From Curvularia clavata (Eukaryota), in assembly GCA_023920165.1 (NCBI GenBank), contig CP089277.1, positions 4,340,001 through 4,404,000 on the forward strand: DNA of 64,000 nt, read 5' to 3'. The notes below the pieces were generated by a model. The model had not been told where the DNA came from and made no database searches. It saw only the letters and a list, made by a program, of their open reading frames with translations. Numbering within the stretch: position 1 is the first letter of the stretch; the number at the start of each line of letters is the position of its first letter. A program made the position numbers and the translations under genes. This document shows positions 14,901 through 53,027 of this stretch, in pieces.

Positions 14901-14940
14901 GGTGGTGGAGTTATGTGGTGTTGAAGAGAATGGATTACTA

Positions 14941-16795: not shown

Positions 16796-16910
16796 TATGC
16801 TACTTTTGGTGGGGTGGCTCATTGTCTGACCATGCTCACGCACTGACCATGCCCGATATACAATGCTACGTGAATCGACACCCGGTATATCTTAATTAGA
16901 TGATTGCGTA

Positions 16911-18771
16911 ACGTAGTTTACAAGCGAGTGACGCGTACAAGCGAGTGACGCACCCCACGAACTTTGCGCACCTCTCATCTCTTTACATACAATGGCTCAA
17001 CACCAGATTACTCAAACACATTCAGAAGAAGCAGATATCCAGCTTGCTATCTCATCTATTAATACTAAACAAATTCAAAGCAATCGCTCTGCTGCTGCAG
17101 TCTACAACGTGTCTGAAGCAACACTCCGCCGCCGACGCGCTGGCATGGCTGCCCGACGTGATTGCCAGCCTAATTCAAAGAAGCTTACAAAGCTAGAAGA
17201 GGAGGTGATAGTCAATCATATACTAGACCTTGATTTACGTGGATTTTCACCTACCTATGCAGCTGTGCGCGATATGGCTGACAGACTCCTGACTGCGCGC
17301 GGCGCTGGCCAGGTTGGCGTCCACTGGCCGCGCAACTTCGTCAAGCGTACAGACAGTCTTACGACGCGTTTTAATCGAGCGTACGATAGACAAAGAGCTC
17401 TATGTGAAGATCCAGCCCTAATCAAGAGCTGGTTTGAGCTTGTAGAGCAGACAAAGGCCAAGTACGGCATCTGTGACGAGGACGTCTACAACTTTGACGA
17501 AGCTGGCTTTTCAATGGGCAAGATTACTACTCAGCTTGTCGTTACAGCGTCAGAAAGAAGAGCTCGACCAAAGGCTATCCAGCCAGGTGGTCGCGAGTGG
17601 GTGACGTTTATCGCTGGGATTAACGCAGCTGGCTGGTCTATCCCACCATTTCTGATCTTTACTGGCAAGTATCACCTCTCTGCCTGGTATGAGGAGGCAG
17701 AGATCCCACGCGACTGGGCGATCGCAGTCAGCGATAACGGCTGGACGACCAACGAGCTAGGAGTTGAGTGGCTAAAGCACTTTATCAAGCATACAGATGG
17801 CAAGGTTGTTGGGGCACGCCGGCTGCTTATTCTTGACGGCCATGAGAGCCACCAGTCACTCGGGTTCCAAGAGCTCTGCAAGCAGAACAATATCTACACG
17901 CTCTGTATGCCGCCTCACTCGTCTCACCTGCTCCAGCCTCTTGACGTTGGCTGCTTCTCACCATTGAAGCGCGCGTACAGCCGTGAGGTAGAGAGTCTGA
18001 TACGCCACCATATCAACCACATCACTAAGCTCGAGTTTCTACCAGCGTTCAAGGCAGCTTTTGATCAATCATTCACGTCAGCCAATATCTGCTCAGCTTT
18101 CCGAGGCGCAGGCCTTGTTCCTCTCCAGCCAGACGCTGTTCTTTCAAAGCTTGACGTGCAGCTACGTACGCCAACTACGCCAACTCTACCAGCTCTCGCA
18201 GAAGCTCTCTGGCAGGCCTGTACACCAAGCAACGTACGCGAGCTTGAAGCTCAATCAACACTAATAAGTAATCGCGTTCGACGGCATAAAAGCTCATCAC
18301 CAGCGTCAATCATTGCAGCGATTAGCCAGCTTAAGAAGGGGGCAGAGATAATGATACTCTCGGCTGAGCTAATGCGCGATCGAATTGCTAGCCTTGAGAG
18401 AGCTAATACAGTAGTATCAGAGCGTAGAAAGCGTAAGAAAAAGCGGATACAGAAGCGTGGAGTCCTTATAAAGGGAGCTGGCGAGGATATTATCGCTCAA
18501 CGCGAGGCTAATGAGCAGATTGCTTATGAAGAGCGTCAGGGAGGAGAGCGATCAGATGTCAGCCGCCAGGCTCTGGCGCGCTGTAGTAGGTGTAGAGAGA
18601 CTGGCCATAACTCACGTACATGTAAGAAAGATGCTCTAGCTAGTACTTAATCTACTTTACTAGTTTCTATATATTATACTATTGCGTTGTTGAGTGATAT
18701 AGCTTTAGAGGTGCGCAAAGTTCGTGGGGTGCGTCACTCGCTTGTACGCGTCACTCGCTTGTAAACTACGT
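16911..18771 (+). mobile_element. Intact pogo/Fot1 transposon B
   Basis: 65 bp TIRs that look perfect by eye (acgtagtttacaagcgagtgacgcgtacaagcgagtgacgcacccc…). TA at 16909-10 and 18772-73. Confidence 0.95.
16992..18650 (+). CDS. Fot1/pogo transposase, paralogous to element A
   Basis: Same DDE_1 motifs and CCHC tail; 552 aa uninterrupted. Confidence 0.95.
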
Positions 18772-18911
18772 TACTCTGACTTAAAAACGCGCGTATACGA
18801 CCCAGATCAGACGATATTAATAATCCTTATCTATTATAGTCTAGCGCAAATTAGCCTCTTGGGATTTGCGTTTTAGTGCTAGCGTGAGCTTACATAAGTG
18901 AGATCATGCTA

Positions 18912-21356: not shown

Positions 21357-21778
21357 CTATAAGACCTAGACCTGAATGGCTAAGGGTATTAGGGTAAACA
21401 ATAGTTAGAGCTTCCCGCATAGACCTAAAGTTAATATGCACTATCCTCGATCCTATAATATCTTTGTCTTTTAATTATATATCTACACTATATATTAGAA
21501 ACTGAGGTACTATATAATTAGTATCTAAAACCTAGTCTATACGATTGAGTAGTCTGATAATATTATTATCTAATTCTATTATACATGTGGTAGGAAATAC
21601 AGTATTATGCTCAAATATGATTGCTTTTCTTTATCTGTTTTCGCGTTAGTGTAATGTTCTTGCTTTGTCTAATTTTAGTCTCGTACAGATTCTCTTTGTC
21701 AAAACCATCAGTATTGATGGTAGTATTTACTTTGTCTGTGGGCTGGGCTGAACTTTTGTTTTGATCCTGGGCTATATA

Positions 21779-24700
21779 ATGACAATCCTCGCGTGCCGGG
21801 ACGCCCGGTGTAACGGGACACTTTTTCTTCCGGACGTCCGGCATGCTCACACGATATATGTAAATTGGCCGGTTCAATGTGCATGTATACTCTAGCACTA
21901 GTCCTCCTACTGCATCCCCATCCGACATCAGAGAACGCGTTGCTAACTGTGCTGTCGCTCTTTTTATTAGTGCTGTCGACCAATCCTCTCTAAGAACTCC
22001 CCTGCTCGTTTGCGGCTACGTACATTCGCCAAGAGCTCGGCAGGTCAGAGAGCGAACTGAGAAGGCGAAGATGAAGACTCTCGCCCCAGAAAGTCAATTA
22101 AGGCATGGAGTGTGCAGTCCGGCAGTTTCTCCGCGCGAAAGGTAGAATCGTCACAATGTAGCTGCCCGGCCATGCGTCTTAAGCGAGCTTTCAGCTACAG
22201 TAGCGTGCTGAGACATCTGCAACTCTTACTGCGCACTGTGGCTGGGGGTTGTAGCGCTAGAAGTGATATTTCGGGCTGCTATTATTCCCGACGCTACAAG
22301 TAATCATAGCATAATCTTGAGTTCCCAATCTCCAGTACGCGCAACCCTTATTATGCGAAGTTACTAAGTACTTTAGTATAATAATATACTCTAACTAAAA
22401 CAAACTTGCCATGCTGCTAAATACACTAATAAGGTAAAAGAGGAAGGCAGGTTTACTTGCCCTTGCACAAAGCTATGCATCTAGCTAGATAATTACTTAA
22501 ATACTAGTCGCTTGGCTTCTCCTATGCTTCGGCCTCTCCATCTGAAACTTACTAGTCAAGACTACTTACAAGACAAAAGCACTTCGCTACGGTGTTGGCG
22601 ACATGCTCGGGTAGTAGGGTGGTGCTCTCCAAGGACAAAGCTGTACCCGTCACACGCCCTATTGTACAGATTGAGAGATTCCTTGTAGTCACAGAGCGTC
22701 GCAAGCAGGTGAGCAAGGCAGTACACGCTTTCTAGCGTGTTGAGGTGCTCGGGCCCAAGCACCTTCTCGTATCCTTCCAGCGCTCGTCGATATATCGCTT
22801 CTGCCTCCTCGTACTTGCCCTGGCTCGATAGTACCAACCCAAGGTTGTTGACGCTAGTGAGCGTGTCGGGGTGCTCGCGCCCAAGCACCTTCTCGTATCC
22901 TTCCAGCGCTCGTCGATGCATCGCTTCTGCCTCCTCGTACTTGCCCTGGCTCGATAGCACCGACCCAAGGTTGTTGACGCTGGTGAGCGTGTCGGGGTGC
23001 TTGCTACCTAGTACTCTCCTTCTCGACTCTATCACTTGCATATAGAGCTCTTCAGCTCTCTTGTATTGTCCATCACTCTGCAGAGCTCTAGCGCAATCTT
23101 CTGCAAGATTTGTTCTCTCCTCGTCATCATTCTTCTCACTATGCGACAGTGCATATTGAGCGTGCGGCAGTAGTCGCCTCCATTTACTTCTATTACTGTG
23201 ATCGCTGTTTAGAAACACCTGAAGCAGCTGCGTGACTGCGCGTTGAGTGCATTCATAAAGTCGTCCCTGTATCTGCAGCTGCTCTCGTAAGGATTGGTGC
23301 ACCAATCGATGCACGTCAAATGCTGACTCAGCAGGTCGCCTTGTGACGAGCGCATACTTGTCAAGTATCATGATCGCATCTATACGGGCCTGCGGCGAAG
23401 CTGCCTCGAGCAGATCGAGCGGAATGTCCTTTCGGTCTACGCACGCAGCAAAGTAAAGCTGCTCTATAGCAATAGCGTTGCTCTGCCGGACTTGATCTAT
23501 AGAAAGAGATAGTGTAGCAGCTACAGCCTTTCTTAGACCAGACTCTCCATGCTCGCCTTCACGCAAGTCATTGCTGTACTTGAGAGCTGCTTGGTCGTGG
23601 TCGTTTAGTCGTGCTTGGTACTACTGCACTGTTATATTGCTTGCATTTATGCACGCTGCCGCTTGCGACACTGCTAGAGGCAGGTACGATAGTTCTCTTA
23701 GCAAGTGTATGGCTCCCAGCTGCTCAGCATCGGAGAGCGGCGTTGTTAAACGAGATTGTAACATCCTCAGCGCCGTGTCTGACGCCAGCTCACCTAGCGC
23801 TACTACATCTTGTGGAGCAAGCGTCTTAACCGTGTCGCTTTCTGTAGTTGTGAAGATAACAGAACATAGCTTAGAGTGCGGCAGAAAGTCCGCTAAGCCT
23901 GTAGCTTCTGCTGTTGGCGAGCCACCATGCTGGACAGTTGTGCCCTCGACGTTGTCGAAGATTAGCAAACACTGCTGCGTACTTAGCTTTGCTATGCAAC
24001 GTTTCACAATCTGCTCTATGTCTGCCTGGTCACCATCACAACCAGGAACGCCGAGCTTCTGTGCAACACTAATATAGGACTGATCGAGACTGTCTTTGCC
24101 GCTCGCATCGATCCAGAAGACTGAACAATCCTTATATTTCTCTAGCGTTCTGTGTGCAACCTCGAGCGCGAGCTGCGATTTACCTATTCCGCCAGACCCG
24201 ACTATTGCAAGCGTTAAGGTAGTCTGTGTGTTGCTGAAGAGCTTCGCTTCTAGTTCCGCGAGCTGTATTTCGCGACCCACAAAAGACTTGTTGCGCGCGA
24301 ACGGAATGATCGACGGTGCGCGGCCGGCTCTCTCCACTTCAGCCTGCAGTCTTTCTAACGCACTCTCCCTTCCTTCGCCATAGGTTGCAGGCATAGAGAC
24401 GCCAAGAAGTCCCAGCAGGCAGTATACTATATCTTCTGTCTCGGTCGTTTCGCGACCGCTAACCCATCGCATGCGCTCAGATGTGCTGAACTGGTTGAGA
24501 GGATGGTTGCGCAGCGCTGCAAGCGGAATCCCGGTAATGCTGTGCAGTAGTCGGTTGAGAGAGGCTTTGTCGCCTATATGTTGCCCTTCGCACGAGGAGA
24601 ACTCCACAGATGCTGGCGCTATCAGCTCCTGCAGCGTCCATCCGCGAGTGAACCACTTGCTCTGCCGAAAGGATACATTCCGGTCACTGCATAAGACAGA

Positions 24701-25934
24701 CTCTGCCGAGGTCGAGGTCGACGCCGACACATCTGACAAGAAAACGTAGCATCGTGCCGCATTCTTGTACCACTGGAACATCGAGTTGATCGCCTTAGAG
24801 CGCTCACTGTTATTCCATCTATCGATACAGCATGTGTCAATCCAGAAGTACTGCAGCCCGTCCTGAGCTGCTTGTTCGGCACAGAACCGTAGCTTCTGGT
24901 AGCCTTCCTCTTTCTTTTTGTAGTTTCCATTAAATATGTCTTCAATAAGAATCTCAGAGTCGCCCCATCGGTGCGATAGAATAGCGTAGGGCGGGATCGG
25001 CTTGTCGCGAAAGTCTGTCAGGATCAGTCTGCCCGGTGCGTCTAAATGGAGGAGCCGCATGGCGCTTGCAGCTCGGACTTTAGTCTAAAGAACTAGAGGC
25101 ATGAACAACTTTTGTGGTAGATGAGTGAGAGCAGAATGTTAGCAGGAGTAGAATGGCATCTTTACGATAAAGCAGAGAAGGCAGTCTGGTGAGGCAGTGC
25201 ACACAGCCGGGCTGAAGATGCTGCTGGCTGCATTAAGCGCCCAGCGTCCTGCACTGCCTCCACTCACCATTTACACTAAGGCAGTGTTTGCCTTGCAAAC
25301 TCATGGCAGAAGAGTGTATATATAGGTAAGGTGCTAGTAACATAGCTAACTAATCTATAAAGGTTATCGTTATAGCGTCTCGCTTGGCTCTATGCGACGG
25401 GGGCGGCTGCCTACACGGCCCGGGAATAAGAGCTGTCTAAGGTCAGGCGATGAGTGAGAGCCGCAGCTCTCAGCCACAGCGCGCAACCCCTCGCAGATAT
25501 CTCAGCACGCTACCGCTGCCAAACGCCGCTAAAGTCGCACGGCCGGCTTGTCGCGTTTTGACGATGTTGTCGCCAGCGCGGAGAAACTGCCGGGATTCAC
25601 ACTCCTTACGTTAAGTCGATTCTTTAAGTGTGCAGTCTTGATCTTTGCCATCTTAGCTTTCTTTCTAGTCTACCGAACTATGTAGAATTTTATGCTGTCG
25701 CGAATAAACAAGGGTGTATTAGAGGTGAGTCGATAAACGGCACTGACAGAACGAGCGACAGCATAGCCAACAACACGCTTTTTGGCGTCGGAGGGTGATA
25801 CGCTGGGAGAGCAAGAGCTGTAAAATTGATACGAATTGTGTTTGTCTATTTTTGAGTACGTTACACGCAACCCGAGCATCCGGAAGAAAAGGTGTCCCGT
25901 CACACCGTGCGTCCCGGCACGCGAGGATTGACAT
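21779..25934. mobile_element. Non-autonomous long-TIR element 1 carrying a HET-NB-ARC-TPR gene
   Basis: Left end atgacaatcctcgcgtgccgggacgcccggtgtaacgggacac matches the reverse complement of the right end (gtgtcccgtcacaccgtgcgtcccggcacgcgaggattgacat). Similarity runs ~500 bp inward (21779-22290 vs 25420-25934). TA on both sides. No transposase inside. Confidence 0.8.
22562..25060 (-). pseudogene. NLR-like HET-NB-ARC-TPR gene with a single premature stop (TAG at 23621-23623)
   Basis: HET domain (YAILSHRW, YFWIDTCCID, WFTRGWTLQELIAP), Walker A GSGGIGKS, Walker B LLIFDNV and 42-aa TPR repeats (LGxEHPDTLTSVNNL). The two track ORFs are in the same frame across one TAG. Confidence 0.9.
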
Positions 25935-26091
25935 TAGTATAGTAAATAATATATAGTTATTATTCTCGCTTTATCTATCGTTGCATACGTAGTTATTAAT
26001 AAAACTTAGATTCTAGTGAAAGCTGAACCCTGCACTTGAGCACTCAATTTACAGTCTATACACGATGATACAAACAATCATTCAGCCCTCT

Positions 26092-26950
26092 TTAAAATTT
26101 AAAGCTTCTAATGACAATCTTGACAAGTCTACGTGACAGTCTTGAGATCTTTTTCGAAATCGGTCCTGCAAGCTGCTGTTCTTGTAACGCACACATATTA
26201 GTGTAATGCTGGCAACAAGCTAGGGTAGTAGGATGCCCTTCTCTAAGAATGAGGTTGTATCCAGTAGACGCCCTCTGATATAGACGTAAAGGCTCATCTA
26301 TACAATGCTGCTCAGCAAGGGAATAGGCAAGATAATAGACGCTAGTCAGCGTGTCTAAATGCTCAGGCCCTAATACCTTCTCTCGCAGCGCCAGCGTCTG
26401 CCGGTTTATCACTTCAGCCTCTTTATGCTTTTTCTGGCTACTTAACACCTATGCTAAGTTGCTTATACTAGTTAGCGTGTCCGGATGCTTAGGCCCTAGC
26501 ACCTTCTCTCGCAGCACTAGCGTTTGCCAGTTTACTTCCTCTACCTCCTTGCACTTTCCCTGACTATTTAAAATCTAAGCTAAGTTATGCATGCATGTTA
26601 GCGTAGATGGATGCTCACTTCCTAGCACCTTCTTATATTAGGCAAGTGTCTGCTCATTTATGGCCTTAGCCTCCTTATACTTTTTCTGGCTATTCAGTAC
26701 TAACGCTAAGTTATACATACTTGCTAGCGTAAACGGATGCTCAGACCCTAGTATCTCTGTACTTAACAGCGATGCTTTTCGGTGCGCCGTCTCCGCTAAT
26801 CTGTGTTGTCCTAAATTTTCCCAAAATTGGCCTTTTTGTTTAGATAGTAAAGCCCACTTCTCCTACTCGCTATATCTATCCGACCAACCATCAAACGCTA
26901 TATGCACTGCTTGTTGCATTTCTAGAAGCCTCTCAGTTATGAAACTTGGC
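26092..26950 (-). pseudogene. RIP-degraded TPR-repeat (NLR C-terminus-like) gene remnant
   Basis: Repeats of LGxEHxxTLTS/ASM with in-frame stops (e.g. …EQTLA*YKKVLG) and an HPTTLACCQHY tail. Confidence 0.7.
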
Positions 26951-27348
26951 GGTCTTCTGTGGCTCTTCAAAGATGTGTATCCAGTTATTGTCGTACAAAT
27001 CTTGACTACCTAGGCATAGTAGATCCTAAGTAGAACGTCGGAAATCCAGCTATCGTAAGTTGCAAAACCGCCCTCACCCTTTGTGCAAGCGACGATTTGA
27101 AACGACCCCTGTCAGCCTAGGGTCTCCCTTGCTAGTCTCCGCTAATCATAGACAGATAAGAGATACTAGCCCTAAGATAGCTAGCTCGTGACTATCGCCC
27201 ACGCTTACATGTAAAATAGGTCTATTGCAATACGTTAAGCAAGATACACAGCATAACGCTGGACTACAATATAGACCGACAGTTCTACGATTTATCCTTA
27301 TTAGGTAGTTAGCAAGTCGTTCAGCACGTACGGCAGATCAACACTAAG

Positions 27349-30300
27349 CTACTCAGCTTCCCACTGTTCTAGGGCAGCTAAAGAAGACTGAGCATCAGGG
27401 TGGCTGGCTTTCAGCACTCGCTGACGCTGCTGTACGCACTGGCTCATTAAGCCTACAGCATCTTCTGTCCGACCCTGTGCTTTCCATGTAAATGCCAGGT
27501 TGTGCATGCTGCTCAGCGTGTGTGGATGGTCTGCTCCAAGCTTCGTCTCGCGAGTCTCCATCACCTGCACGTCCAGCGTCTCGGCCTCGTCCCACCGGCC
27601 TTGCTTTCTGTATGTCGACGCCAGGTTGTGCATGCTAGTTAGCGTGTCTGGGTGGTCTGCTCCAAGCTTTATCTTGCGAGTCTTTATCACCTGTATAAAC
27701 AGCGCCTCAGCCTCGTTCCATCGGCCTTGGTTCCAGTATGTCGACGCCAGGTTGTGCATACTGCTTAGCGTAGAGGGATGGTCTGCTCTAAGCTTCGTCT
27801 TGCGAGTCTCCATCACCTGCATGTCTAGCGCCTCGGCCTCGTCCCACCGGCCTTGGTTCCTATATGTCGACGCCAGATTGTGCATGCTAGTTAGCGTATC
27901 TGGGTGGTCTGCTCCAAGCTTCGTCTTATAAGTCTCCATCACCTGTACGTCCAGCGCCTCGGCCTCGTTCCATCGGCCTTGGTTCCTGTATATCGACGCC
28001 AGATTGTGCATGCTGCTCAGCGTAGAGGGATGGTCTGCTCCAAGCTTCGTCTTGCGAGTCTCCATCACCTGCACGTCCAGCGCCTTAGCATCGTCCCACC
28101 GGCCTTGGTTCGTGTATGTCAACGCCAGGTTGTGCATACTAGTTAGCGTGTCTGGGTGGTCTGCTCCGAGCTTTATCTTGCGAGTCTCCATCACCTGCAC
28201 AAATAGCGCCTCAGCCTCGTCCCACCAGCCTTGGTTCCAGTATGTCGACGCCAGGTTGTGCATGCTAGTCAGCGTGTCTGGGTGGTCTGCTCCAAGCTTC
28301 GTCTTGTAAGTCTCCATCACCTGCACTTCCAGCGTCTTGGCCTCGTCCCACCGGCCTTGCTTTCTGTATGTCGACGCCAGATTGGCTATACTAGTTAGCG
28401 TGTCTGGATGGTCTGCTCCAAGCTTCGTCTTATAAGTCTCCATCACCTGTACGTCCAGCGCCTCGGCCTCGTTCCATCGGCCTTGGTTCCTGTATATCGA
28501 CGCCAGATTGTGCATGCTGCTCAGCGTAGAGGGATGGTCTGCTCCAAGCTTTGTCTTGCTTGTCTCCATCACCTGCACGTCCAGCGCCTTAGCATCGTCC
28601 CACCGGCCTTGGTTCGTGTATGTCAACGCCAGGTTGTGCATGCTGCTCAGCGTGTGTGGATGGTCTGCTCCAAGCTTCGTCTTGTAAGTCTCCATCACCT
28701 GCACAAACAGCGTCTCGGCCTCGTCCCACCGGCCTTGCTTTCTGTATATCGACGCTAGGTTGTGCATGCTAGTCAGTGTGTCTGGGTGGTCTGCTCTAAG
28801 CTTCATCTTGCGAGTCTCCATCACCTGCACGTCCAGCGCCTCGGCCTCGTTCCATCGGCCTTGGTTCGTGTATGTCGACGCCAGGTTGCCTATGCTAGTC
28901 AGTGTATCTGGGTGGTCTGCTCCAAGCTTCGTCTTGCAAGTCTCTATCGCCTGTACTTCTAGCACCTCGGCCTCGTCCCACCGGCCTTGCTTTCTATATG
29001 TTGACGCCAGGTTGGCTATGCTAGTCAGCGTAGAGGGATGGTCTGCTCCGAGCTTTATCTTGCGAGTCTCCATCACCTGCACAAACAGCGTCTCAGCCTC
29101 GTCCCATCGGCCTTGGTTCCAGTATGTCGACGCTAGGTTGGCCATGCTGGTCAGCGTAAAGAGATGGTCTGCTCCAAGCTTTATCTTGCGAGTCTCCATC
29201 ACCTGCACTTCCAGCGTCTCAGCCTCATCCCACCGGCCTTGCTTTCTATATGTCGACGCCAGGTTAGCTATACTGGTTAGTGTAGAAGGATGGTCTGCTC
29301 CGAGCTTTGTCTTGCTCGTCTCCATCACCTGCACAAACAGCGTCTCAGCCTCATCCCACCGGCCTTGGCTCGTGTATGCCGACGCCAGGTTGGCCATGCT
29401 AGTTAGCGTAAAGAGATGGTCCGCTCTAAGCTTCGTCTTGTAAGTCTCCATCACCTGCACAAACAGCGCCTCAGCCTCGTCCCATCGGCCTTGGTTCCAG
29501 TATGTCGACGCCAGGTTGGCCATGCTGGTCAGCGTGTGTGGATGGTCTGCTCCGAACTTCGTCTTGCTCGTCTCCATCACCTGCACCTCTAGCATCTCCG
29601 CATTAGACCATAGCCCTCCAAGTTTGTATGCTAATCCGACCATAGCTATGCTCTGTAGAGTCTCCATATGCTCTTCACCTAGCACTCTCTTCCGCGCCTC
29701 CATTGCCTTTATAGCGAGCATTTTAGCATCAGTAACATTTCCTATCCTCTCTGCAAACCACGCCGCACGGTAGAGTACCATCGCCCAATCTACTGTTGAA
29801 GATTCGTCTTTAGGTTGCTGTTCTACGGCGGCCTTGGCATGCGCATAGAGTGCTCGACAAACTGCCCAGTTCTCGTACTCTCCTGTTGGAAACGCTGCGT
29901 GTAGATTGCTAATAAACTGCTGCTTCCACCGCTCGAGCTTGTTATTATCCTCGAGCCATTTCCGCATTGCTAGTTGCACTAGCGCATGCATCTCAAAGCT
30001 CGTGCCAGTAGTATCGACATAAATGAAGCAGAAGTTTCGCAGCACTGCTACGGCGTCTTCGAATTCGTCGTCACCTGCACCAGACTGGGAAGTATCGCTA
30101 TCTGACTCATCGTCACTGTCTGCCTTTATCTGGCCCGTCTGGGCTTCTCCTCGCTCAGCGTGAGGCTGAAGCAGGGCTGCTGGAATACCTTGTCGGTCAA
30201 AGAAGCTCATCAGCGAGAGCAGGTCTGCTGCGGCTGGCTGCGTCTGTCGTATATACTCAAATGAGATTAGCCATGTAACAGCAATCGCACTCTTCGCTTC

Positions 30301-31324
30301 CCAGTCGCGCCGGAGCTGGCTGGCATCGTGGGCAAGGAGACGTAGCCGCTTGCGGTCGCTCTTCCTAAACTCTTCGAGGTACTTTGCCACCGAGTATAGC
30401 GGTGCTCTTCGTGAGATGTACGCTGCAGCTTGCACAATAGCGAGCGGTATATACTCGAGCTCCACTGCGAGCTCAGCGACATTGCTTTTGTCACTCTGCG
30501 CTCCCAGCTTCTTGCTAAATAGCGCTAACGCCTGCACCTCGTCCATCGGCTCTACATCAAGCACGTCGCGTCCTTCAACTAGCTTCAGCGCCGCGTCCTT
30601 ATTCCGCGTCGTTATGAGGATCGAGCCGTGCTCGCAGTGGGGGAGGTACTCGCGCAGTAGTCTGCCAGCGCCTGTTGCGTTAGCAGCCTGGCCGCCTCTA
30701 TCAGCTCGAACATCAAGAAGGCGAGCGTCGTCAACGTTGTCTAGCACAAGCAGCCACCGCTGCTTGCAGTCGCATAGCCAGTCGTGCACCAGCTTGAAGA
30801 TATTCGCCTGCGGGTCTCGCCGCCCAGCGATCTTAGCCCGGTCGGCGATATCGCGGAAGCTCTGCTCGAACCGGGCCGCGTTGCTGGCGTGCATCCAGAA
30901 CACCCAAGTCTCGGGCGACCGCTCGCGTATGCGGTATGCATATTCGATGGCGAGCTGCGACTTGCTTCTCTGCTATTAGCGTGTGATACTAGATGAGCAA
31001 GCGTTTGCCTACCCTACGCCGCCGAGGCCGACGAGTGCAGCACGCGCGCCCGGCACAGCGCATATCTGGTCAACCTTGTCGAGTGTGGTGCCGCGCTCGA
31101 CGAAGTCGGTATCGCGGGCGAACGGTATAAGGATAGATGGGAGTGGTGGAGTCTCGCGTCGTTCTAAGGCGAGAGTGTGGTTAGTGCGTGTTCGGGCGCT
31201 GAGTCTCCGTAGGGTAGTCCCGCAACTTACCAGGTGGTAGGTAGAACGTAGCGCTCGCCGGGCCGTTGATAATACCAGCCTGGAAGCCGGCGTTCGAGTC
31301 GCTAAACGAGATGGCGGAGGCCAT
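27349..31324 (-). CDS. NLR with N-terminal PP (pseudo-palindromic, RHIM-like) amyloid motif, NB-ARC domain and ~18 TPR repeats (PNT1-like); exons 31324-31231, 31163-31013, 30964-27349
   Basis: The spliced N-terminus is MASAISFSDSNAGFQAGIINGPASATFYLPPERRETPPLPS…ALVGLGGVGKSQLAIEY. GT-AG introns at 31164-31230 and 30965-31012, the second splitting Walker A. Walker B WLLVLDNVDD, IPLAIVQAAAYI, FEMHALVQ, then 42-aa TPRs. Confidence 0.9.
27400..29690 (-). repeat. Highly conserved 126-bp tandem repeat array encoding TPRs
   Basis: About 18 units of …LGADHPxTLxSMxNLAxTYxNQGRWDEAExLxVQVMETxKTK, near-identical at DNA level. Confidence 0.9.
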
Positions 31325-31571
31325 GATACTTTAGCAGAAGTGTGGTGTACATACAGTGGCGTCTGCTGCGAGGTCTCAGCTGGGCTTCAGCCGGGCTACC
31401 TGCGCCGCTGGCTTGCAGGACTCTCGGCCCCTACTTTGCAACTTTATAGCTACAGAGCCTCTTTGCTTTACGCCTCAGCTAAGCACACATCTTCTTTAAT
31501 CTCCTTATTTATACTGTTAACTCTACAGTCGCCTCTCCACTCTTTTTTCTTTAATTACTACCAAACACGAG

Positions 31572-32230
31572 ATGACAGATCCTCTCAGCATTACTGCCAG
31601 CGTTATAAGTATTACCGTACTAGCCTTGCACGGCATACGCTTGCTCATAGAAGACCTGCAGCTGCTCAAGGAGGCCCCTAAAACTGTCAAGCGCCTTTTA
31701 GAAGACGTAAAGTCTGTCGAAACATCGGTCAGATTACTTCAAAGTGTCGGAGAGAGAGAATAGAATCTTCTTGGTGCAAGACCAAATTCGGAGCAGACCA
31801 TTCACGAACGCTAACCAGCATGAACAACCCATCAGTTACCTACAAGCATCAAGGTCTGTGGGATGACGCCGAGATGCTAGATATGCAGGTAATGGAGACG
31901 AGCAAGGCCAAGCTCGGAGCAGATCATCCAGATACGCTGACCAGCATGTCCAACCTGGCGTCGGCATACTGGGGCCAAGGCCGGTGGGACGAGGCTGAGA
32001 CGCTGTTTGTGTAGGTGATGGAGACGAGCAAGACGAAGCTCGGAGCAGACTATCTAGACACGCTGGCCAGCATGTACAACTTGGCATTTGCATGGAAAGC
32101 ACAAGGTCGGATAGCAGATGCTGTAGGCTTAATGAGCCGGTGTTTACAGGGCCGTCGGCAAGTACTAAAAGCTAGCCATACGGACGTTCAGTCTTCGTTG
32201 ATGGTTTTAGAATAGTGGAAGGCAGGATAG
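31572..32230 (+). pseudogene. Truncated HeLo-like (HELL/HELLP-type) effector joined out of frame to a TPR fragment
   Basis: MTDPLSITASVISITVLALHGIRLLIEDLQLLKEAPKTVKRLLEDVKSVE…ERE*NLLGA is a HeLo-like N-terminus. From ~31778 the sequence switches to TPR units and a C-terminus similar to the neighbouring NLR (AFAWKAQGRIADAVGLMS), with stops. Confidence 0.75.
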
Positions 32231-34337
32231 GTTGGTGTTAGTTTACTACATAAGCTGAAGCAGTCGCTGCCTAGTCAGCGTAGAACGCAGACCTGGCAAT
32301 TTATTGTATCCGTGCCGAGGCTTAGCTGACGTAGCTTAGTAATAAGTTATGCTTTGGCACGGATAGCTTTTTGTTTTGCGTGTAGATCAATGTATTGTCA
32401 TGATTAGACCTGTTTTGCATACCAGAGTGGTCTCTGGTACCGAGCTAGCTGTCTTAGGGTTAGTATATTTTAGATCTCTGTGATTGGCGGAGCTAAGCAA
32501 GGGGTACCCTAGGTCTGCAGGGGTCTTTCCAAATCGTCGCTTGCGCAAAGGGTGAGGGCGGTTTTGCAACTTACTGTATAGCAAGGTAACGACAGCATGA
32601 ATAAAGATCCTAGAACAAAGAGAGTTGAGATGAAGACGGAAAGCTATTACACAGAAGAAATCTTATATGCTGAATATAAATCGGGTGCTGTCTTATTCTA
32701 TCACATAATCAGACAACTATTCATAATACTTGACTATCTATGGTTAATACACATCAGTAAGCTGCACACATCACAATCTACATCCTGGTTGTTTGACGCA
32801 GGCCTGCAAGGGATCGTCCATACCGAAGCCGCAGTAATTAGACGATCATAACAACAGACCATGAAAGTCCTTCCGCCCTTCGTTCTGTACAATTGCATCG
32901 ACTTATAGCTTTCCTCTAGGCATCGAAATACCCGTCTTCCAACACCCCCGCTTAATGATAGCTTGAAACCTGACGCGTGGCAGTAGACTTGCTATAGGTA
33001 TCATATGTAGTTGCTGCTACAAAATAATAGCCTATCTTACGGTGGGCTAATGCAGTTTTTACCAGAGGGTCTTGCTTCTTGGCTGGTGACCACTGCTTTA
33101 TCTTTGACACAACTCCATCTGGCCTAGCGTAACAAGCAGGAACACTTTGAAGTGTGATGCTTGTTACGCTAGTCTCTCTCTGGTTAGGAGAGAATCTTGC
33201 CACTTAGAACTTACAAACGAGTAACGTCCGTCCCTGTGGGTCAAATATCCCTGCGCAACGAATCACCAACATTCCCCAAGCATCTTACGCCCAAGCCGCA
33301 GAGGCGCTTAGACATAATCACACGTTTATAAACTTTCTAAGCCTACTTCTATCTATTACAGGCCTTGAATAGCAAAATTACAGCAATTTAGGGTGTGTAT
33401 ACGAATCTTTCTTGTTAAGCGTAAAAGGCGCGATAACGATACACCCCTGTTCAGTCCTCTATAGAAGCAGATCTAGCTTATTCGGAAAGTTTATATTATG
33501 TATAATATGTCGAAGACGCTATGTGTGTTATATCAAGACATGCAGCATCTGTTCAGATGCACTCCGAGTTTGTCCGACTTGATATGCCAGTTCTCCGCGT
33601 TTAGCGAGAGGATTTAGAACGCTTACATAGCAGGATTGAGAACGCTTAGCGGCCTACGATGTACACCTGCGCTATGCCAAAACTGCTGAAGCTGTGGCGC
33701 AAAGCTCTAGAAGCTTCTACCCTGTACTGCGCAAGCGCGCAGCTAACGCATGCGCCGGTGTTTGCATGGAGAGCGCCTGTAGCTAGGATATACTAGATCA
33801 CTTTCTCTAGCTCTGTACAATGGGGTCTCGCGGCGTTGAGTATGATAGATAGAAAGGCGAATACAAATCGAGTTCAAATCTAGATGTTATCCACAAGTGT
33901 TGCATTTGCGCGACTGCTTTCTTATCTTGTTCTGCGTCGTAACGGGCAAGCTTTGAGTGCGTCGGTGCTTAGACCTCTACTAACAGCGCCAAGGGCCTCA
34001 TTACTCCAGCTCTCGATGCAGACGCGTTTCAGCCTTGCGAGCAGTGCACGGAGCATGCATGGCATGCCTTACCCCGCCTGCGGGTTCACACAGCCTTCAC
34101 CACCAAGTCAAGGATACAGCGAAAGCCGGCAGCCTCAGCTCGCGACATATTGACACATCACAGGATCCTGCTGGTACCTGAGCTAATGCACCTGCTCGTC
34201 GTCCTCTCTGTATGCTTACTATCTATCGGTAGCAGGAAAGCAGCTAACAAGCAAGCGCCCGCACTATCAGGCTACTAAGTTCAGCCTTTCGAGTCCTGTT
34301 CTTATCGCATATATCTACCATACACCCACACGAATCT

Positions 34338-37300
34338 ATGCGGCTCTTACAGTACAGTGAAAGCGGGGAGCTTAGCATCCATAGCTTCGACGATGGCGAC
34401 ATACCTCCCTACGCAATACTTTCACACACCTGGGGTGCAGATGGCGACGAGGTGACCTTTGCAGACCTCCAGACGGGCGGTGGCAAGATAAAGCTGGGCT
34501 ATGAGAAGATCCTCTTCTGTGGAAAACAAGCGCGGCGCGACAACCTCCAGTACTTCTGGATCGACACGTGCTGCATCGACAAGGCCAATAAGGCTGAACT
34601 CGCTTTCTCTATCCGATCGATGTTTCGCTGGTACCGCGATGCAGCTCGGTGTTATGTATACCTGTCGGATGTCTCTACTCAACCTCTACTAGCTACCCAA
34701 GACCACCGTGATTCACAATGGCTTTTCTGGATCTGGATACTCTCTATCCTCTATACTATGTCAAGATGGTACGGCAGCACGATACAGCGCTACTTCTATT
34801 CGCGCTATGTTCCATGCACTCCAGTTGGTAACGATCTTGTGCGCAGCACGCAGATGCCTAAGTTCACGCTTAAAAAAAGCAGATGGTTCACCCGCGGATG
34901 GACACTACAGGAGCTTCTTGCACCATCTATAGTAGAGTTCTTCTCTAAGGAAGGGACCAAACTTGGCGATAAGTTATTGCTGGCAAAAGAAGTACGTGAA
35001 GTCACAGGTATCCCTAGTTCAGCGCTGCAGGGTGAACCGTTGTCCAATTTTGATGTTTACGAACGCGTCACGTGGATTGAGCATCGCACTACAACAATTC
35101 CAGCAGATCGCGCATATTCTCTAATGGGTATTCTTGGTGTCAGCTTGTCCCCAATCGATGGCGAGAATCTAGCTGAAGCAATGAAACGGGTTCTAGATGA
35201 GGTTGATAAGCAGAATAAGTGCCTCCAAGACTTGCGTCCTAGCAACCCGCGCGATGATAAGAAGCGGATTGAGGAGACTAAGGGCGGGCTGCTTGCAGGC
35301 GCTTACCGTTGGGTTCTTGACAACGACACCTTTCAGCAGTGGCAGCAAGATCCAGAGAGCCGACTATTATGGGTAAAAGGTGATCCTGGCAAAGGCAAGA
35401 CGATGCTGCTGTGCGGCATTATCGACGAACTACAAAACCTTACGCCGAAACCTACCCTTGTTTCATACTTTTTTTGCCAGGCGACCGACTCGCGTATTAA
35501 TAGTGCCTCAGCTGTGCTGCGGGGATTGTTGTATATGCTCGTGGACCAGCAACCATCACTTACAGTTCATATTCGCAAGAAGCACGATCGCGTAGGCAAA
35601 AGTTTATTTGAGGACGCGAATGCCTGGGTTGCTCTAATAGAGATCTTCGCCGACGTGCTGCGAGACACAGGCTTGATCACAACGTACCTAATTATTGATG
35701 CGCTCGATGAATGCATGACTGATCAGGTAAAGCTACTTAGCTTTATTGCAGAGCAGTCATCTGCGTGCTCTCACGTTAAGTGGATCGTGTCTAGCCGCAA
35801 CTGGCCAACTATCGAGGAACAACTAAAACGTGCAGAACGCAAAACGCCACTAAGCCTTGAGCTGAACGCTGAGTCAGTTGCAGCAGCAGTCAGGGTCTTC
35901 ATCCAGCAGAAGTCGTGTCAGCTAGCGCAAGAGAAGCGCTACACGCCAGAGGTACACGACGCAGTGCTCCAGCACTTGACATCAAACGCGAACGACACCT
36001 TCCTCTGGGTTGCGTTGGTATGCCAAGACCTCAAAGCAACGCCGAAGTGGGACGTGCTCGAAAAGCTAGCCCAGTTCCCGCCTAGTTTAGACTTACTTTA
36101 CAGGCAGATGCTAGATCAGATACGCAAGTCTAGTAGTGCTCGAAGATGTCTGCGGGTGCTCGCAGTGACTACCGTCCTATATCGACCCGTCGCAGTCGCT
36201 GAGCTAGTTGTGCTTACTAAGCAACTTGCTGACCTTGTTGATGACCTAGAGTCGGTGCGAGAGATTATTGGTCTTTGCGGATCGTTCCTTACGCTGCGCG
36301 ACGACACAGTCTATTTCGTACATCAGTCAGCTAAGGACTTCCTTATCACACAAGCGTCAAATGAGGTCTTTCCTAACGGTGCAGAGTGTGTGCATCAAGA
36401 TATCTTTGCGAAGTCACTTACCGTTCTGCAAAAGACACTCGATAGAGATTTGTATAACCTTCAAGCGCCTGGATATCCTATAGAAGACGTTAGGCTGCCT
36501 CTTCTTGATCCTTTAGCCGTGTCGCGCTATCCATGTATCTACTGGATCGACCACTTCTACGACTCGAAACATATGACACAAGCACATAGTGCTGCTAATC
36601 AAGAAGATACTAGGACTATAGAGACATTCTTTAGGCAGAGATACCTCTACTGGCTAGAAGCGCTCAGCTTGTGCAGAAGCATAGCGACAGGGGTAGTCTC
36701 GATAACAAAGCTTTGGGATCTAGTCCAAGTACGGCTCACGTGATCGTATATGCCTGCAGTCTTTTCAACGCAGTTGCTGACATGCACAGGGGCTTAAGGA
36801 CACAGATGCATTAACTGAGACTGTCTATGATGCACGAAGATTCGTTATGTATCACAAAGAAGCGATTGAGAACTATCCTCTACAAGCGTATGCATCTGCT
36901 CTGCTGTTTAGTCCAGCAGATAGTCTAACAAGAAGGCTATTTCGGCATGAAGAGCCGGCCGGCATAGGAGTCAAGCCAGCAATGAGCAGCAGCTGGAGCG
37001 CCTGTCTGCAGACGCTCGAGGGCCATAGCAGTCCTGTGAGCTTGGTAGCATTCTCACACGACTCAAGCCAGCTCGCGTCAGCGTCATACGACTGCACTAT
37101 CAAGATATGGGACACAAGCAGCGGGACATGCCTACAGACACTTAAAGGTCATATCAATAATGTTATGTCCGTGGCCTTCTCGCACGACTCGAGCCGGCTA
37201 GCGTCAGCATCAAGCGACAAGACTATCAAGATCTGGGACCTAAGCAGTAAAACGTGTCTGCATACACTTAAGGGCCACAGTAGTACTATTAGCTCAGTAG

Positions 37301-38952
37301 CCTTCTCGCACGACTCAAGCCAGCTCGCGTCAGCGTCCAGCGACAAGACTGTCAAGATCTGGGACGCGAGCAGTGGAACACGCCTGCGCACATTTAAGGG
37401 CCATAGCAGTACTATCAGCTTAGTAGCCTTCTCACACGACTCGAACCAGCTAGCGTCAGCATCATACGATAGAACTATTAAGATCTGGAACACGAGCAGT
37501 AGCATTTGTCTGCAGACGCTCAAGGGCCATAGTAATTGGGTTAACTCATTAGCCTTCTCGCACGATTCGAGCCGGCTAGCGTCAGCTTCAAGTGATAGAA
37601 CTGCCAAAATCTGGGACACAAGCAGCGGGACATGCCTACAGACACTCAAAGGTCATATCAATAATATTATGTCTGTGGCCTTCTCGCACGACTCGAGCCG
37701 GCTAGCGTCAGCATCAAGCGACAAGACTATCAAGATCTGGGACCTAAGCAGTAAAACGTGTCTGCATACACTTAAGGGCCACAGTAGTACTATTAGCTCA
37801 GTAGCCTTCTCGCACGACTCAAGCCAGCTCGCGTCAGCGTCCAGCGACAAGACTGTCAAGATCTGGGACGCGAGCAGCGGGACACGCCTGAACACAATCG
37901 ATGGCCATAGCGATGCTGTTACGTTACTAGGCTTCTCACACGACTCGACCCGGCTAGCTTCAGCGTCATATGACAGGACTGTTAAGATATGGGATACGAG
38001 CAGCGGGACATGTCTGCAGACGCTTGAAGGCCATGGAGATGATATTAGCTCCGTAGGCTTCTCGCATGACTCGACCCAGCTTGCGTCAGCATCATACGAT
38101 AGCTTGGTTAGGATATGGAACGCGAGCAGCGGGATATGTCTGCACACACTTAAAGGGCATAAAGATTATGTTAGCTCAGTAGCCTTCTCACACAATTCGA
38201 GCCAGCTCGCGTCAGCGTCTAGTGACAAGACTGTCAAGATCTGGGACGTAAGTAGCGGGATATGTCTGCACACACTCGATGGCCATAGCGACGCTATTAG
38301 GTTAGTAGTCTTCTCACACGACTCAATCTGGCTAGCATCAGCGTCCAGCGACAAGACTGTCAAAATCTGGGACACAAGCAGCGGGACGTGTCTGCACACA
38401 CTTGATGGCCATAGCGATGCTATTAGGTCAGTAGCCTTCTCACACGATTCGATCCGGCTAGCTTCAGCGTCAAGCGATAGAACTATTAAGATATGGGACG
38501 TGAGTAGCGGGATATATCTATATACGCTTAAGGGGCATAAAAGTTATATTAGCTCAGTAGCCTTCTCGCGCAACTCGAGCCGGCTAGCGTCAGCTTCAAA
38601 GGACGAGACTGTCAAGATCTGGGGCGTGAGCAGCGGAACGTGTCTGCACACCCTTAACATCAGCATGAGTCTTTCGAGGCTTTCTTTTGGCTCCACTGAT
38701 ACCGTCCTCCACACAGAAATAGGCACTGTCATTATCCCATCTTCCCAGGTTTCTAGCAGCGCAGACGTTGCAGTATCAAAACCACAGTACCAGAATGTCA
38801 GTCTAAGTCCAGATGGCGTCTGGGTGATGCGCGCTGGAGTCAAAAGATTAAGGATACCGTCTGAGTATCGGCCGTCATGCTCAGCCGTGAGTGGAGCTCT
38901 GGTAGGTATGGGAGTAGGCTCAGGAAAGGTTTGGCTTTGTCAGGCGATTTAG
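34338..38952 (+). CDS. HET-NACHT-WD40 NLR (HNWD / HET-E-like); exons 34338-36728 and 36790-38952, 1517 aa
   Basis: HET motifs (YAILSHTW, FWIDTCCID, WFTRGWTLQELLAP), NACHT Walker A GDPGKGKT, Walker B LIIDALDEC and FVHQSAKDFL. A GT-AG intron at 36729-36789 joins the two ORFs in frame. 13 WD40 repeats. Confidence 0.93.
37000..38655 (+). repeat. 126-bp tandem repeats encoding 13 highly conserved WD40 units
   Basis: Units of GH…VAFSHDSxxLASASxDxTxKIWDxSSGTCLxTL; repeats 2-3 are nearly identical to repeats 6-7. Confidence 0.9.
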
Positions 38953-41358
38953 GCAAGCAACAGTAGATAAATAGAAGACCTCTCTAAGCCCTTGTGTCTC
39001 TATACTTATTGAGAATGTGGGGGCTATACGATCCTCATTATGTATGTATATAATAGGAACCTGGAGAAGTCTATATGTACTCAATCGGTTTCTAAGAATA
39101 GGCAGCAACCGACTGCGCGCGTAAGCGGTGGCCAGACGAAGCAATCTTTGCGCCACAGCTCGATCTGTTTTGGTATAGCGTACGTGTACATTGCAGGCCG
39201 CTAACCTTTCAGTACTGGTTGTGTCAGCACGCTAAGTCTTCTCGGTTTATGCGATGGACTAGCACATCACACCAGAACAACTCGGAGAGCACCTGGAAAG
39301 TAGCTGCACATATCGTAAGAGTGGTACCGTATTTTTTAGCTAATTAAATATTTCTTAGGGGCTCTGAAGAATCAAGCGATAGTGCTATATGTAAAATAGC
39401 AGGGGTATTTTGCTGTTATAGCTTCTATGCAAAAGAAAAGAGGCTTAAGAACATAAGCTACAACGCTTTAATATTATTATATTGAGCCTAAGGTAAATAG
39501 AGATAGACACAAAGAATATCAGCTCATTGACCTAACTCTACATAATTGAGAAGAGTGGGCATAACATAGTTAATCAATGTTCGTGGTTCGTTGCGGGGGG
39601 ATGTTCGACCCACACGGACGGACGTTATTCAATTTTTTGAAATAATCGTCTCAAAGGACTGGAAACACACCCGCCAATGGCCGCAACGGTCTCATCTCTC
39701 AAGTGAACCACCCCAGAAACGCCCGGCATGCTACAATTGGCGCTACTACATACTTATAGATTACTAAACAGCCTTGGCCACTACAGCGCTTGCCAGAATC
39801 TTGGATAAATTGCGTCCTTCTATGCGGAGAATAATATTAGATAGTGAATCTATGATACACTTTTGCTAAGAATACTAGAATTTATACAATAACCGCCCTT
39901 CGTTTATATATCTACTAATTTGGTTCTATGTCTTTTATATTGCTTGAACTGTGTCTGCTTTTAAGCCCTCTAGACTTTCGACGCAGGACGCTCCCCTCGT
40001 TTCAGGTTTTTCTATTATTGCATTCTCTCGCTCTGCTAATTTTAACAATAGCTGCCTTTACACTTCTAAGCTTCCCTCAATTTCATGTATATTATGCTGA
40101 TTGTTCCCAACAATCCGTTGCCTGACATGACCTTTGTTGTTAAATACTCTGCCTTAGTACCTCTCCTGCTCTTTCTCGCGACAATAGCTATTGTTTTTGA
40201 TGAAATCGTAGAAAGTCTTCTCTGTTCTCCAAGCAGTAGGCATATTTGGATACCTCTAATTAGGTCGGTATAAGATATCTCTAAATACCCTAAGCTTTAG
40301 ACGTAAGTCTTTGCAAATTGCGCCAATTTTACCTTTTACTCTAACGTACGCATATTTATAGGCGTGAAGTCATGATATGACTCATGTAAGAATCGATCTA
40401 ACGACATATAGCTTGATTTTTTATTGTCGGTCTGAGCACCAGGGGTAGCAAGCAAGTAAGTCGCAGCACTCATCTATGCCCCTTTGCGGAAGTTCAAAAG
40501 AACCTAAACTGTTGTACGCAGCTTGCATATAATTATATCATGCTATGTAAAACTGGCTACATTAAAACGCATAAAATAGCACTAAAGAATTTATAAGTTC
40601 CCCTTGACAAAGGCCAACTTAATCTCAAAACAACTCTTTTCCATAACGATTTTTCTTCTCTATAGCCCGCAATTTGCTACCTATCTCTTCACAATATATA
40701 TACCGTTGTATCTGCCTTTTCACCTCTAGCACGCATAGATATCCCAATAGATTCTCTAACTCAGTACTTACTTATACTTTGAAAATTGAGAAGCAGAAGA
40801 CAGTGCGTAACAGACTCCACGAAAAGACTTAAATCAAAGAGTAATTAGGAATGGCATTTTGGGTCGACAATCGCCCTATATAACTTCTAAGCACGATAAG
40901 GTGTTGATAACTTTTAGTTTCTTTTGAGAGTACGTTGGACCGCGAAACCTCTAAACACCCTTTCCTAGTTGGTGGAAACCCTGGTAAGCTGGAACTAGAC
41001 AATCAAATACAGCATCGTGCCAGAATTTTTGATGACCCTGCGCTTCTATGAGTTGATTCCGGCCCACTAAGATTTTTGCTGCAAACGGAGATAACTTACA
41101 TGCATCTTAGTGCTAAAAGATTTTAGTTCTTTTGACAGTACATTGGACCGTGAAAATCCCTACATATTCCTGGTGGTATGCTATATTATGATACTTACTT
41201 CTAGCTGTCTTAGAATTATGGCGCATTAGAGCTATTAAGTGTGTCTAGCTAAGCATACGATCTAACACTAAAGTCAACTTTCTGATCTTTGTAAGTAGTT
41301 CTGTGCTAATATCGTATATTTATACCATAAATTAGAAGACTGTTACCCTAAAACACTA

Positions 41359-51937: not shown

Positions 51938-53027
51938 GGTGATATCTCAATCGGACGCTTGGTGTTAAACCGCTTACCGAATCCGTGGGTGGTCAAAGTG
52001 TTACACGGGGTCCTACTGGTTAGTTGGGAATATACTTACCTAGCCTAGATTCCGGGTTAGGGCGAGGCCAGTTTCTATGAAGTATACCGTGAGGTAGTTG
52101 TCTGGCGATTCGGTGGTAGGGATTAACGGAAGATAGACAAAACCAATCCTATTGGAAGATAGAATAACTAGTATCAATCTGAGTATGAAAGGTAACTATG
52201 AAAGATACTTTGCTGAGTTGACCACAACGAGTGTAATAATGAAATCCAACACATTCTTATACCCATTGCTTCCGGTCCTGTCCTCACTGTCCTCACGGAA
52301 TAACCCCTGTGTTCTCTGAAGTCCCTGAAGTCACTTTGGTCACGTGTGAGCGTGTCCTCACATACTAGCGTGGTTTCCCGGTCTTGGCCTGAGGCCAGTC
52401 ATGTGATCGCCCTTCCGCGGGGATCATTACCTTCTGACGTGTCGCCCAATGGTCTCCTACCTGCGGCCATCGTCAAGGAGAGATCCTTCTTTGTTACTTG
52501 TAACATATAAGTCTAGCTAGAGATACGCTAGTTATAGGCGTTATTATATGTTCTGCGCCGAACTTTTAGGATAATTACTATATAACAATGCGACAAGAAT
52601 ATAGGACTGTTTAAAGGATGAAGTTTTAATAGAATATATCCTATTCGTCTAGCTAGTTAGTATAGTTACTTTTATTAGATAATGGATTCATTGGCTAACT
52701 AAGATAGACAGGGAAGAGTACATATATGTTAGCTATCCGGGTGGCTGGGCCCAGCCACCTGAGTTTTTCCCTTATACATCTTTTAATAACTTTGATAATC
52801 CCACGTCGTGGCTGAGGGCGACTGTGGCTGTGGCGATACAATAAGCCAAGTGAAAACGCTTTTTAAGCCCCTTCTAGAGCTGCAAGGCTAAATAAGTTGT
52901 CTATCCTACTTTATAGCTTATATAGTTTTAATATGAGTAGCTCTTTCAATACAAATAACGTTAGTTTTACTTTATAGTCACTCTTTATTAAAATATGGCT
53001 TTGTAATAGCTCTTCCAAATCTGCTTA

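Follow-up and report, generated by a model that had tools for sequence, protein, structure and literature searches.

How fungal nucleotide-binding oligomerization domain-like receptors (NLRs) spread and are reshuffled under repeat-induced point mutation (RIP) is an open question to which the locus described here is relevant. The analysis was performed on a stretch of 64,000 nucleotides of Curvularia clavata (positions 4,340,001 to 4,404,000 of contig CP089277.1, assembly GCA_023920165.1; G000:C4:4340001-4404000), referred to below as the window and taken from a 32.4-Mb genome (G000) in 8 contigs; the best of the named homologues come from Pleosporales fungi. Window positions 27051-32578 lie between terminal inverted repeats (TIRs) and hold, from left to right, an NLR gene with an N-terminal PP-type amyloid motif (gene A, minus strand), the 5' remnant of a divergent HELLP-type effector gene (gene B, plus strand) and the tail of a second NLR. 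This segment is probably a non-autonomous, internally deleted member of a Tc1/mariner-type (Ant1-like, DD34E) family whose cargo consists of NLR signalling cassettes, and the anatomy of the family suggests that its elements are mobile. An earlier note, made from the letters alone, had proposed that a complete amyloid signalling module, consisting of a PNT1-like NLR and a HELLP-like effector placed head-to-head, was captured inside a TIR element. The capture is supported and is broader than was claimed, as the same ends enclose cassettes on contigs C1 and C3 of the same genome and at a metagenome locus, L034. That PP cassettes may contain HELLP or enzymatic effectors is already known; the real finding is their capture between TIRs.

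Terminal repeats around NLR cassettes

The left end of the window element (27051-27087, plus strand) consists of a TA dinucleotide followed by a terminal repeat of about 35 bp and reads TA-TCGTAAG. The right end (32542-32578, minus strand) is likewise formed by a repeat of about 35 bp and a TA (TA-CAGTAAGTTGCAAAACCGCCCTCACCC). A first search pattern, built from three ends, matched 6 sites, of which five are family ends, C1-left and C3-right included, and one is unrelated. After refinement, 6 matches with 3 mismatches or fewer were obtained over 32 Mb, arranged as three inverted pairs, with 0 in the control; because the pattern was made from those very ends, only the absence of further matches is informative. 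The cassettes on C1 and C3 are each bounded by the same ends of about 37 bp as the window element. At C1:482604-486753, the complete counterpart of the window pair, an intact NLR (MASTVSFRDKNYGIQGGIING) stands head-to-head with an intact two-exon HELLP gene ending in FGDGNSGLQTGVLHGGVHGAVFGQK. At C3:1983579-1990406, a PP-NLR is accompanied by a PNP_UDP-domain frame that ends in FGSQNSGQQAGVINGGVHGAVFGRR, and a decayed TPR tail occupies the left end. Fragments with a hydrophobic two-helix end were also noticed between the PNP_UDP gene and the NLR of the C3 element (L024:4250-4810, corresponding to G000:C3:1985750-1986310); no Pfam match was obtained for them.

Fourteen ends could be compared in all (91 pairs). 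TA is present in every one, TA-CAG in 13 (the left end of the window being the exception), and TA-CAGT is what we take to be the end signature of Tc1/mariner elements. Identity amounts to 25% in the 30 nt outside the TA and to 74% at positions 27-37, which lie outside the pattern; conservation thus spans about 37 nt. The end was also searched for in metagenomes, where 8 loci were found, two of them being the same place; NLR sequence lies just inside the end in 4 of the 7 distinct loci. Neither viral contigs nor prokaryote genomes yielded a match to the pattern (0 in each). At L035:7984-8500, in a different organism, the same end encloses a weak isochorismatase-like frame, and for that reason the cargo may exceed NLRs.

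The supposed TIRs could also be the conserved 3' flank of an NLR family, the inverted pairs arising only where two NLR copies came to stand back to back through inverted duplication or ectopic recombination, and the transposase of L034, described below, being a chance insertion. Such a flank would account for most ends lying a few hundred bp beyond the stop codon of an NLR and for a similarity that often continues through the 3' flank into the TPR region; it is also favored by the failure to find an empty site and by the 5' clipping of the L034 transposase. Similarity nevertheless stops sharply at the TA in 14/14 ends, and TA-CAGT is the Tc1/mariner signature. Moreover, what the end adjoins is not only the 3' side of NLRs but also that of the HELLP gene at C1 right, the 5' side of an NLR in L033 and of a HET-NLR in L032, and non-NLR DNA. 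A relative of the transposase elsewhere in G000 has an end that matches the first 13 nt of C3-left, and ends of two further families surround HET-NACHT-WD40 or TPR NLRs in a like manner. The explanation by a gene flank is therefore considered unlikely.

The two arms of the window element are homologous in inverted orientation; their identity is about 76% over 770 nt and reaches 81-82% towards the ends. TIR elements can give rise to foldback derivatives, and the right arm of a real element could be an old foldback copy of the tail of gene A, produced by template switching during gap repair. The TPR sequence of the right arm is, however, no closer to gene A (76% identity) than to the NLR tails of C1 (73%) and C3 (75%). 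Its differences from gene A are distributed over the codon positions as 37/24/50, with a third-position bias, and its frame is intact save for two internal stops at 32012 and 32213, both of the CAG-to-TAG type. Transitions show no excess (110/184 between the right arm and gene A, 112/182 between the window and C1). Equidistant tails, third-position bias and stops confined to CAG-to-TAG are more readily explained by a separate paralogue than by a foldback that has decayed, and NLR sequence is found at both ends in L034 and C3 as well. A foldback origin of the right arm is accordingly given a low probability.

A transposase-bearing relative

A DD34E transposase is absent from the window, C1 and C3 elements and is found in L034, a whole element of 8.66 kb in which an end, PP-NLR-A, the transposase, a HELLP gene with a PP tail, PP-NLR-B and the second end follow one another. 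The transposase matches the DDE_3 profile (E=2.7e-33) and displays the residues D138, D222 and E257 in DD34E spacing. It belongs to a large family of fungal Tc1-like proteins of about 325 residues (3354 matches among 4592 candidates), is 69% identical to a putative transposase of 326 residues from A. oryzae (P0113), and finds its best sequence match in PDB in the Sleeping Beauty transposase (E=0.0003). Separate inverted repeats around the L034 transposase were looked for and were not found. Its closest relative in G000 lies at C7:2829726 (66% amino acid identity) and has an end, TA-CAGTACCGTTC, whose first 13 nt are those of C3-left. In that region (C7:2827900-2830784; L058, L059), an open DD34E transposase is placed head-to-head with a broken NACHT gene, and an LTR-like (long terminal repeat) sequence cuts in nearby; the frame upstream of this NACHT gene carries what we take to be a sigma-type motif.

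A number of observations weigh against the view that the window element is a deleted member of a transposon family. No NLR lies inside the end at L029, L030 and L035, that is at 3 of the 7 distinct metagenome loci, although only 296 bp are available there at L029. Furthermore, 7 of the 8 loci originate from three closely numbered metagenomes and may represent one organism. L034 is the single family member that bears a transposase, and it is itself clipped: the first two codons of its relatives are missing at the join with the NLR promoter, and its NLR-A is split over two frames. Gene A is 71% identical to NLR-A of L034 and 65% to NLR-B, though it is B that faces the HELLP gene; with gene A closer to NLR-A, the window element does not simply descend from L034 as such. 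The end of the C7 transposase differs from the family end past its first 13 nt, and a search for the second end of that element returned only the one. In the window, the left end has lost the terminal CA (two changed terminal bases), and no empty site was found when homologues of the TPR gene on the left flank were compared with the right flank (best E=0.77). The elements look old: among the three G000 elements (window, C1, C3), identity in the nucleotide-binding domain amounts to only about 55-61%, which excludes recent copying between them. Finally, RNA of this organism over gene A was not seen in the four runs compared, X17 providing related genes only.

The left-flank gene used in this comparison is a decayed minus-strand TPR gene located just outside the element (26180-27050), with several TAG stops and 73% identity to the Bipolaris maydis protein P0048.

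The receptor gene and its broken partner

Gene A is read from an ATG at 31324 to a stop at 27349. Exon 1 (31231-31324) carries the PP-type motif, exon 2 (31013-31163) a linker and the start of the P-loop, and exon 3 (27349-30964), an open frame, an NB-ARC-type domain followed by TPR repeats of 42 residues. Intron 1 (31164-31230, 67 nt) shows the signals GTAAGT..GCACTAAC..TTAG and intron 2 (30965-31012, 48 nt) GTAGGC..GCTAAT..AGAAG. The latter lies within the Walker A codons, and the Walker A sequence GLGGVGKS is assembled across it at about residue 78. Splicing yields a single open frame of 1286 residues with the N-terminus MASAISFSDSNAGFQAGIINGPASATFYLPP.

These two introns had been postulated in the earlier note and are supported by the open frame, by their identical positions in the C1 paralogue and by skips in RNA contigs of homologues, as distinct from this gene's own transcript. 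Read-run contigs were compared with the locus for 4 runs of 24, X17 being the only RNA on record; 16 runs with a small share and 4 with a zero share were left out as evidence. An X17 contig of a homologue from another organism displays a net skip of 48 nt at intron 2, joining 30964 to 31014 with one letter between, and at intron 1 another X17 contig, of a related gene, continues directly from exon 2 into sequence resembling exon 1. Almost none of the words of the region are present in the four runs bearing the same species label, which is no proof of absence.

The domain content of the spliced product, with weak NB-ARC and NACHT matches, DUF7779 and TPR_10 in 19 stretches, follows the PNT1-type layout of a short N-terminus, an NB-ARC/NACHT domain and TPR repeats, devoid of a folded effector domain. 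The assignment of gene A as a PNT1-like NLR is supported by this architecture. The repeats are highly similar in DNA sequence, with a mean pairwise identity of 0.84 and a maximum of 0.99 (15 repeats compared).

The PP-type motif of gene A occupies residues 7-22 (FSDSNAGFQAGIINGP, 31259-31306). Its core, NAGFQAG, conforms to G-h-Q-h-G with an upstream N (NxGxQxG) and is followed by I-I-N. The ninth position is thus I, with the N one residue further, and the strict pseudopalindrome NxGxQxGxN is not present; the Ses_B profile (PF17046) also remains below its cut-off on this N-terminus (E=0.0023, 18.2 bits against 23.2). A profile was drawn from the effector side. The HeLo-like first exon of the C1 paralogue was used to search proteins of 252-2000 residues and identified 43 homologues, all of 254-336 residues, among which NxGxQxG occurs in the last 45 residues of 35 and the strict form in 1. 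The 35 tails were combined into a profile and searched against 4773 six-frame peptides from the window and five other loci. Gene A's N-terminus was matched at E=1.1e-8, the next match in the window being at E=5.9, and the NLR N-termini of C1, C3, L034-A and L034-B at 1.7e-6 to 1.7e-9. The PP motif announced in the earlier note consequently stands as regards its core and its kinship with effector tails, and does not stand in its strict form or by the Ses_B threshold. With the same profile, no effector-side PP motif was found in the window, the N-terminus of gene A being the sole match.

A divergent intergenic region of 247 bp (31325-31571), which aligns with that of the C1 cassette, separates the ATG of gene A from that of gene B. 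The remnant of gene B (31572-31779, plus strand) comprises about 69 codons and is 75% identical to the C1 HELLP in amino acid sequence. Positions 31572-31760 match the HeLo-like profile PF17111 at E=2.7e-7 (30.6 bits, cut-off 27.2) over profile positions 1-58 of 209 only; the C1 paralogue reaches E=8.4e-17. The divergent neighbour with a HeLo-like start is thus confirmed, and its HELLP ancestry is supported by the 35 of 43 homologues with a NxGxQxG tail and by the absence of HELL-NOD-TPR NLRs among them (0/43); the outcome that the earlier note had named as refuting for these homologues did not occur. Codon 64 of gene B is a TAG stop (31761-31763). HELLP homology ends near 31780, at about codon 69, where the sequence passes through a shared GCAAG into the TPR tail of the second, outward-facing NLR (31775-32230, plus strand), which is out of frame with gene B. 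The joined piece contains about three TPR repeats, a C-terminal cap and the 3' flank. Gene B thus lacks the open frame of about 270-280 residues with a terminal PP motif that characterizes HELLP proteins and that is present in the C1 and L034 copies; judged on its sequence, it is a HELLP pseudogene.

Two candidate explanations of this junction were rejected. An assembly artefact is contradicted by read-run contigs that cross it: a contig of X1, which is possibly the source of the assembly, spans the HELLP::TPR junction with 0 differences, and a contig of X3, from another organism label, spans it over 796 nt with 30 differences. Run X8, which covers the junction with fewer than 31 letters on one flank, was left out of this count. 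The reading of gene B as a HELL-NOD-TPR NLR whose intron went unrecognized is contradicted by the length of the longest homologue (336 residues) and by the out-of-frame junction.

A complete, working PNT1/HELLP pair at this locus, as originally proposed, has some of the expected attributes, namely the head-to-head layout, a PP-type motif on the NLR, a HeLo-like start and PP-tailed homologues. The stop at codon 64, the loss of HELLP homology at about 31780 together with the PP motif encoded beyond it, the out-of-frame TPR sequence and the absence of a PP tail in the window refute it for this allele, and the junction is secured by the X1 and X3 contigs. The effector being truncated in this way, a complete module is unsupported for the window copy and its probability is close to nil.

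The following course of events is consistent with a deleted element. The parent would have carried two outward-facing NLRs around a HELLP gene, in the layout of L034. One deletion at a 5-nt microhomology would then have removed the 3' three quarters of the HELLP gene, along with the middle of the element and the second NLR's 5' portion, and the RIP-type stops (CAG/TGG-to-TAG) would have come after it. Dinucleotide RIP indices across the element are unremarkable.

As for function, work on Podospora and Chaetomium suggests that a ligand bound to the TPR array would cause the NLR to oligomerise, that its N-terminal PP motif would thereby adopt an amyloid fold and template the C-terminal PP motif of the effector, and that the membrane-damaging HeLo-like domain would be released as a result. 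The adjacent effector being gone, gene A, if it is expressed and signals at all, would have to do so in trans. Its likely partners would then be HELLP of C1 or the PNP_UDP protein of C3, both of which have tails with the motif variant of gene A. With an intact PP-NLR that has lost its neighbour and same-variant effectors remaining on other chromosomes, the locus constitutes a natural test of in-trans amyloid signalling. Gene A could otherwise be an orphan in decay, its open frame being due to recent chance, with neither expression nor a partner, as its dead neighbour and the decayed TPR gene on the left flank might indicate. This would concern function only and is compatible with a deleted transposable element. 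Such an orphan would, however, have kept 1286 codons open across highly similar repeats that are expected to attract RIP, the TpA/ApT index of its TPR part is 0.93, and effectors with a compatible PP tail are encoded on C1 and C3; the orphan state is a possibility to be kept in mind, if a doubtful one.

Cassettes of another composition were observed at C7:953143 and C5:868986 (L048, L049), where a HeLo (PF14479) gene with a canonical PP tail stands head-to-head with a TPR NLR. The ends of the TA-CAGT family were not found there in the genome search with the end pattern, and these cassettes represent a second PP variant of this genome that possibly forms a separate pathway. In the predicted model of P0003, a HELLP homologue, the structure is entirely helical apart from a disordered tail, and fold searches returned generic helical bundles; MLKL is not among the matches listed, which does not exclude an MLKL-like four-helix bundle fold. 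A PDB sequence search with the HELLP alignment gave nothing below E=0.2.

Known systems and neighbouring features

Taken by itself, the PP cassette is a further member of a described system. According to PMC7885112 and PMC5485727, the N-terminal PP motif of the NLR templates the C-terminal motif of the effector, leading to HeLo-like cell death, and PP motifs from two species seed one another, with lower efficiency than those belonging to one cluster. The Podospora anserina pnt1-hellp pair and the Chaetomium globosum cluster hellp-sbp-pnt1 described there resemble the window cassette in the juxtaposition of an NB-ARC/TPR NLR bearing an N-terminal PP motif with a HeLo-like (PF17111) gene, in the G-h-Q-h-G core and in homologues of about 270-280 residues with a C-terminal motif. 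They differ in that the motif is here NxGxQxGx(I/V)xG instead of NxGxQxGxN, the effector is destroyed and TIR-like ends flank the cassette. The available text of PMC9815663 gives the PP core as NxGxQxGxN and names PF17111 HeLo-like. It also describes PP/NLR07 and NLR39 classes in which the motif starts within the first ten residues, as in gene A. PP is associated there with pore-forming and enzymatic effectors, as are here the C1 HELLP and the C3 PNP_UDP protein, and signalling between non-adjacent genes is suspected. Transposons are unmentioned in that portion of PMC9815663, whereas the present cassettes lie between TIR-like ends.

Several known elements offer a comparison for these ends. Ant1 has short TIRs and a TA target and carried amyA sequence. 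An Ant1-like transposase reading frame of 981 bp (tnpA) is reported beside the duplicated amylase genes amyB/C in PMC3111232 and PMC13562431; P0113, the 326-residue relative of the L034 transposase, matches this frame in length, and the DD34E spacing is shared. In contrast to such Aspergillus elements, the cargo considered here consists of whole multi-gene immune cassettes with introns, and the window element lacks a transposase. Starships, ToxhAT, Pack-MULEs and Helitrons are likewise mobile DNA with host genes, as far as can be gathered from the excerpts of PMC13449251, PMC12506042 and PMC6431247. In the first of these, NLRs are reported as Starship cargo, NLRs of high internal conservation are enriched near transposable elements, and such elements 'might be involved' in their movement. 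The present elements measure 4-9 kb and have TA-CAGT ends, unlike the tyrosine-recombinase Starships of 15-700 kb. Full-length gene capture by Pack-MULEs and Helitrons is described as exceptionally rare in the part of PMC6431247 consulted; in the cassettes of C1 and C3, by contrast, the genes read as complete. No account of NLRs within TIR elements is contained in the available portions of PMC12258605 and PMC13004909. At the level of titles and abstract openings, a survey that scarcely covers subscription papers, no report of NLR or amyloid cassettes between TIRs was found.

In a wider perspective, Ascomycetes may harbour immune-cassette transposons of small size that move by cut-and-paste, comprising Ant1-like Tc1 elements as well as two or more further TIR families. 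These would acquire entire NLR genes and NLR/amyloid-effector pairs, transport them within and between genomes and exchange PP-compatible receptors and effectors (HELLP, PNP_UDP, one or two NLRs). The chances of this general proposal are estimated to be about even. If true, such transposons would explain a fast turnover of NLR repertoires despite RIP, and the 37-bp ends together with a matching transposase family render the question of NLR movement testable.

The two other families are both represented in the window. The second TIR family (33219-39630, ends TA-ACGTCCGTCC) encloses a HET-NACHT-WD40 gene; its end occurs at 11 genome sites (control 1), 6 of which form three inverted pairs, and the pairs outside the window (G000:C2:3774572-3780208 and G000:C1:4885215-4891482) both enclose HET-NACHT-WD40 genes. 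The third inverted-repeat family (21777-25936, ends near TAATGTCAATCCTCGCGTGCCGGG) encloses a HET-NB-ARC-TPR gene, and its end is found at 9 genome sites (control 0), of which four make up two pairs and five are unpaired; the pair on C5 (G000:C5:946896-951597) encloses a TPR frame of 1046 codons.

Further mobile sequences were noted around these cassettes. A 55-bp hairpin (32309-32363), situated between two TA dinucleotides, is a remnant of the ends of an unrelated multicopy element of about 2 kb; its sequence occurs at 12 other genome sites, 10 of which form five inverted pairs spaced 2.0-2.5 kb apart. Three consecutive frames of DDE_1 (pogo/Fot1-like) transposases occupy 13893-18774, two of them with near-perfect inverted ends of 66-68 bp (14939-16797 and 16908-18774). 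An O-methyltransferase frame (PF00891, 10268-11980) adjoins this cluster of transposons and NLRs. On the other side, at 45546-51946 and 55467-60655, lie two Ty3/gypsy-type retrotransposons with chromodomain integrases, whose gag and pol frames are open.
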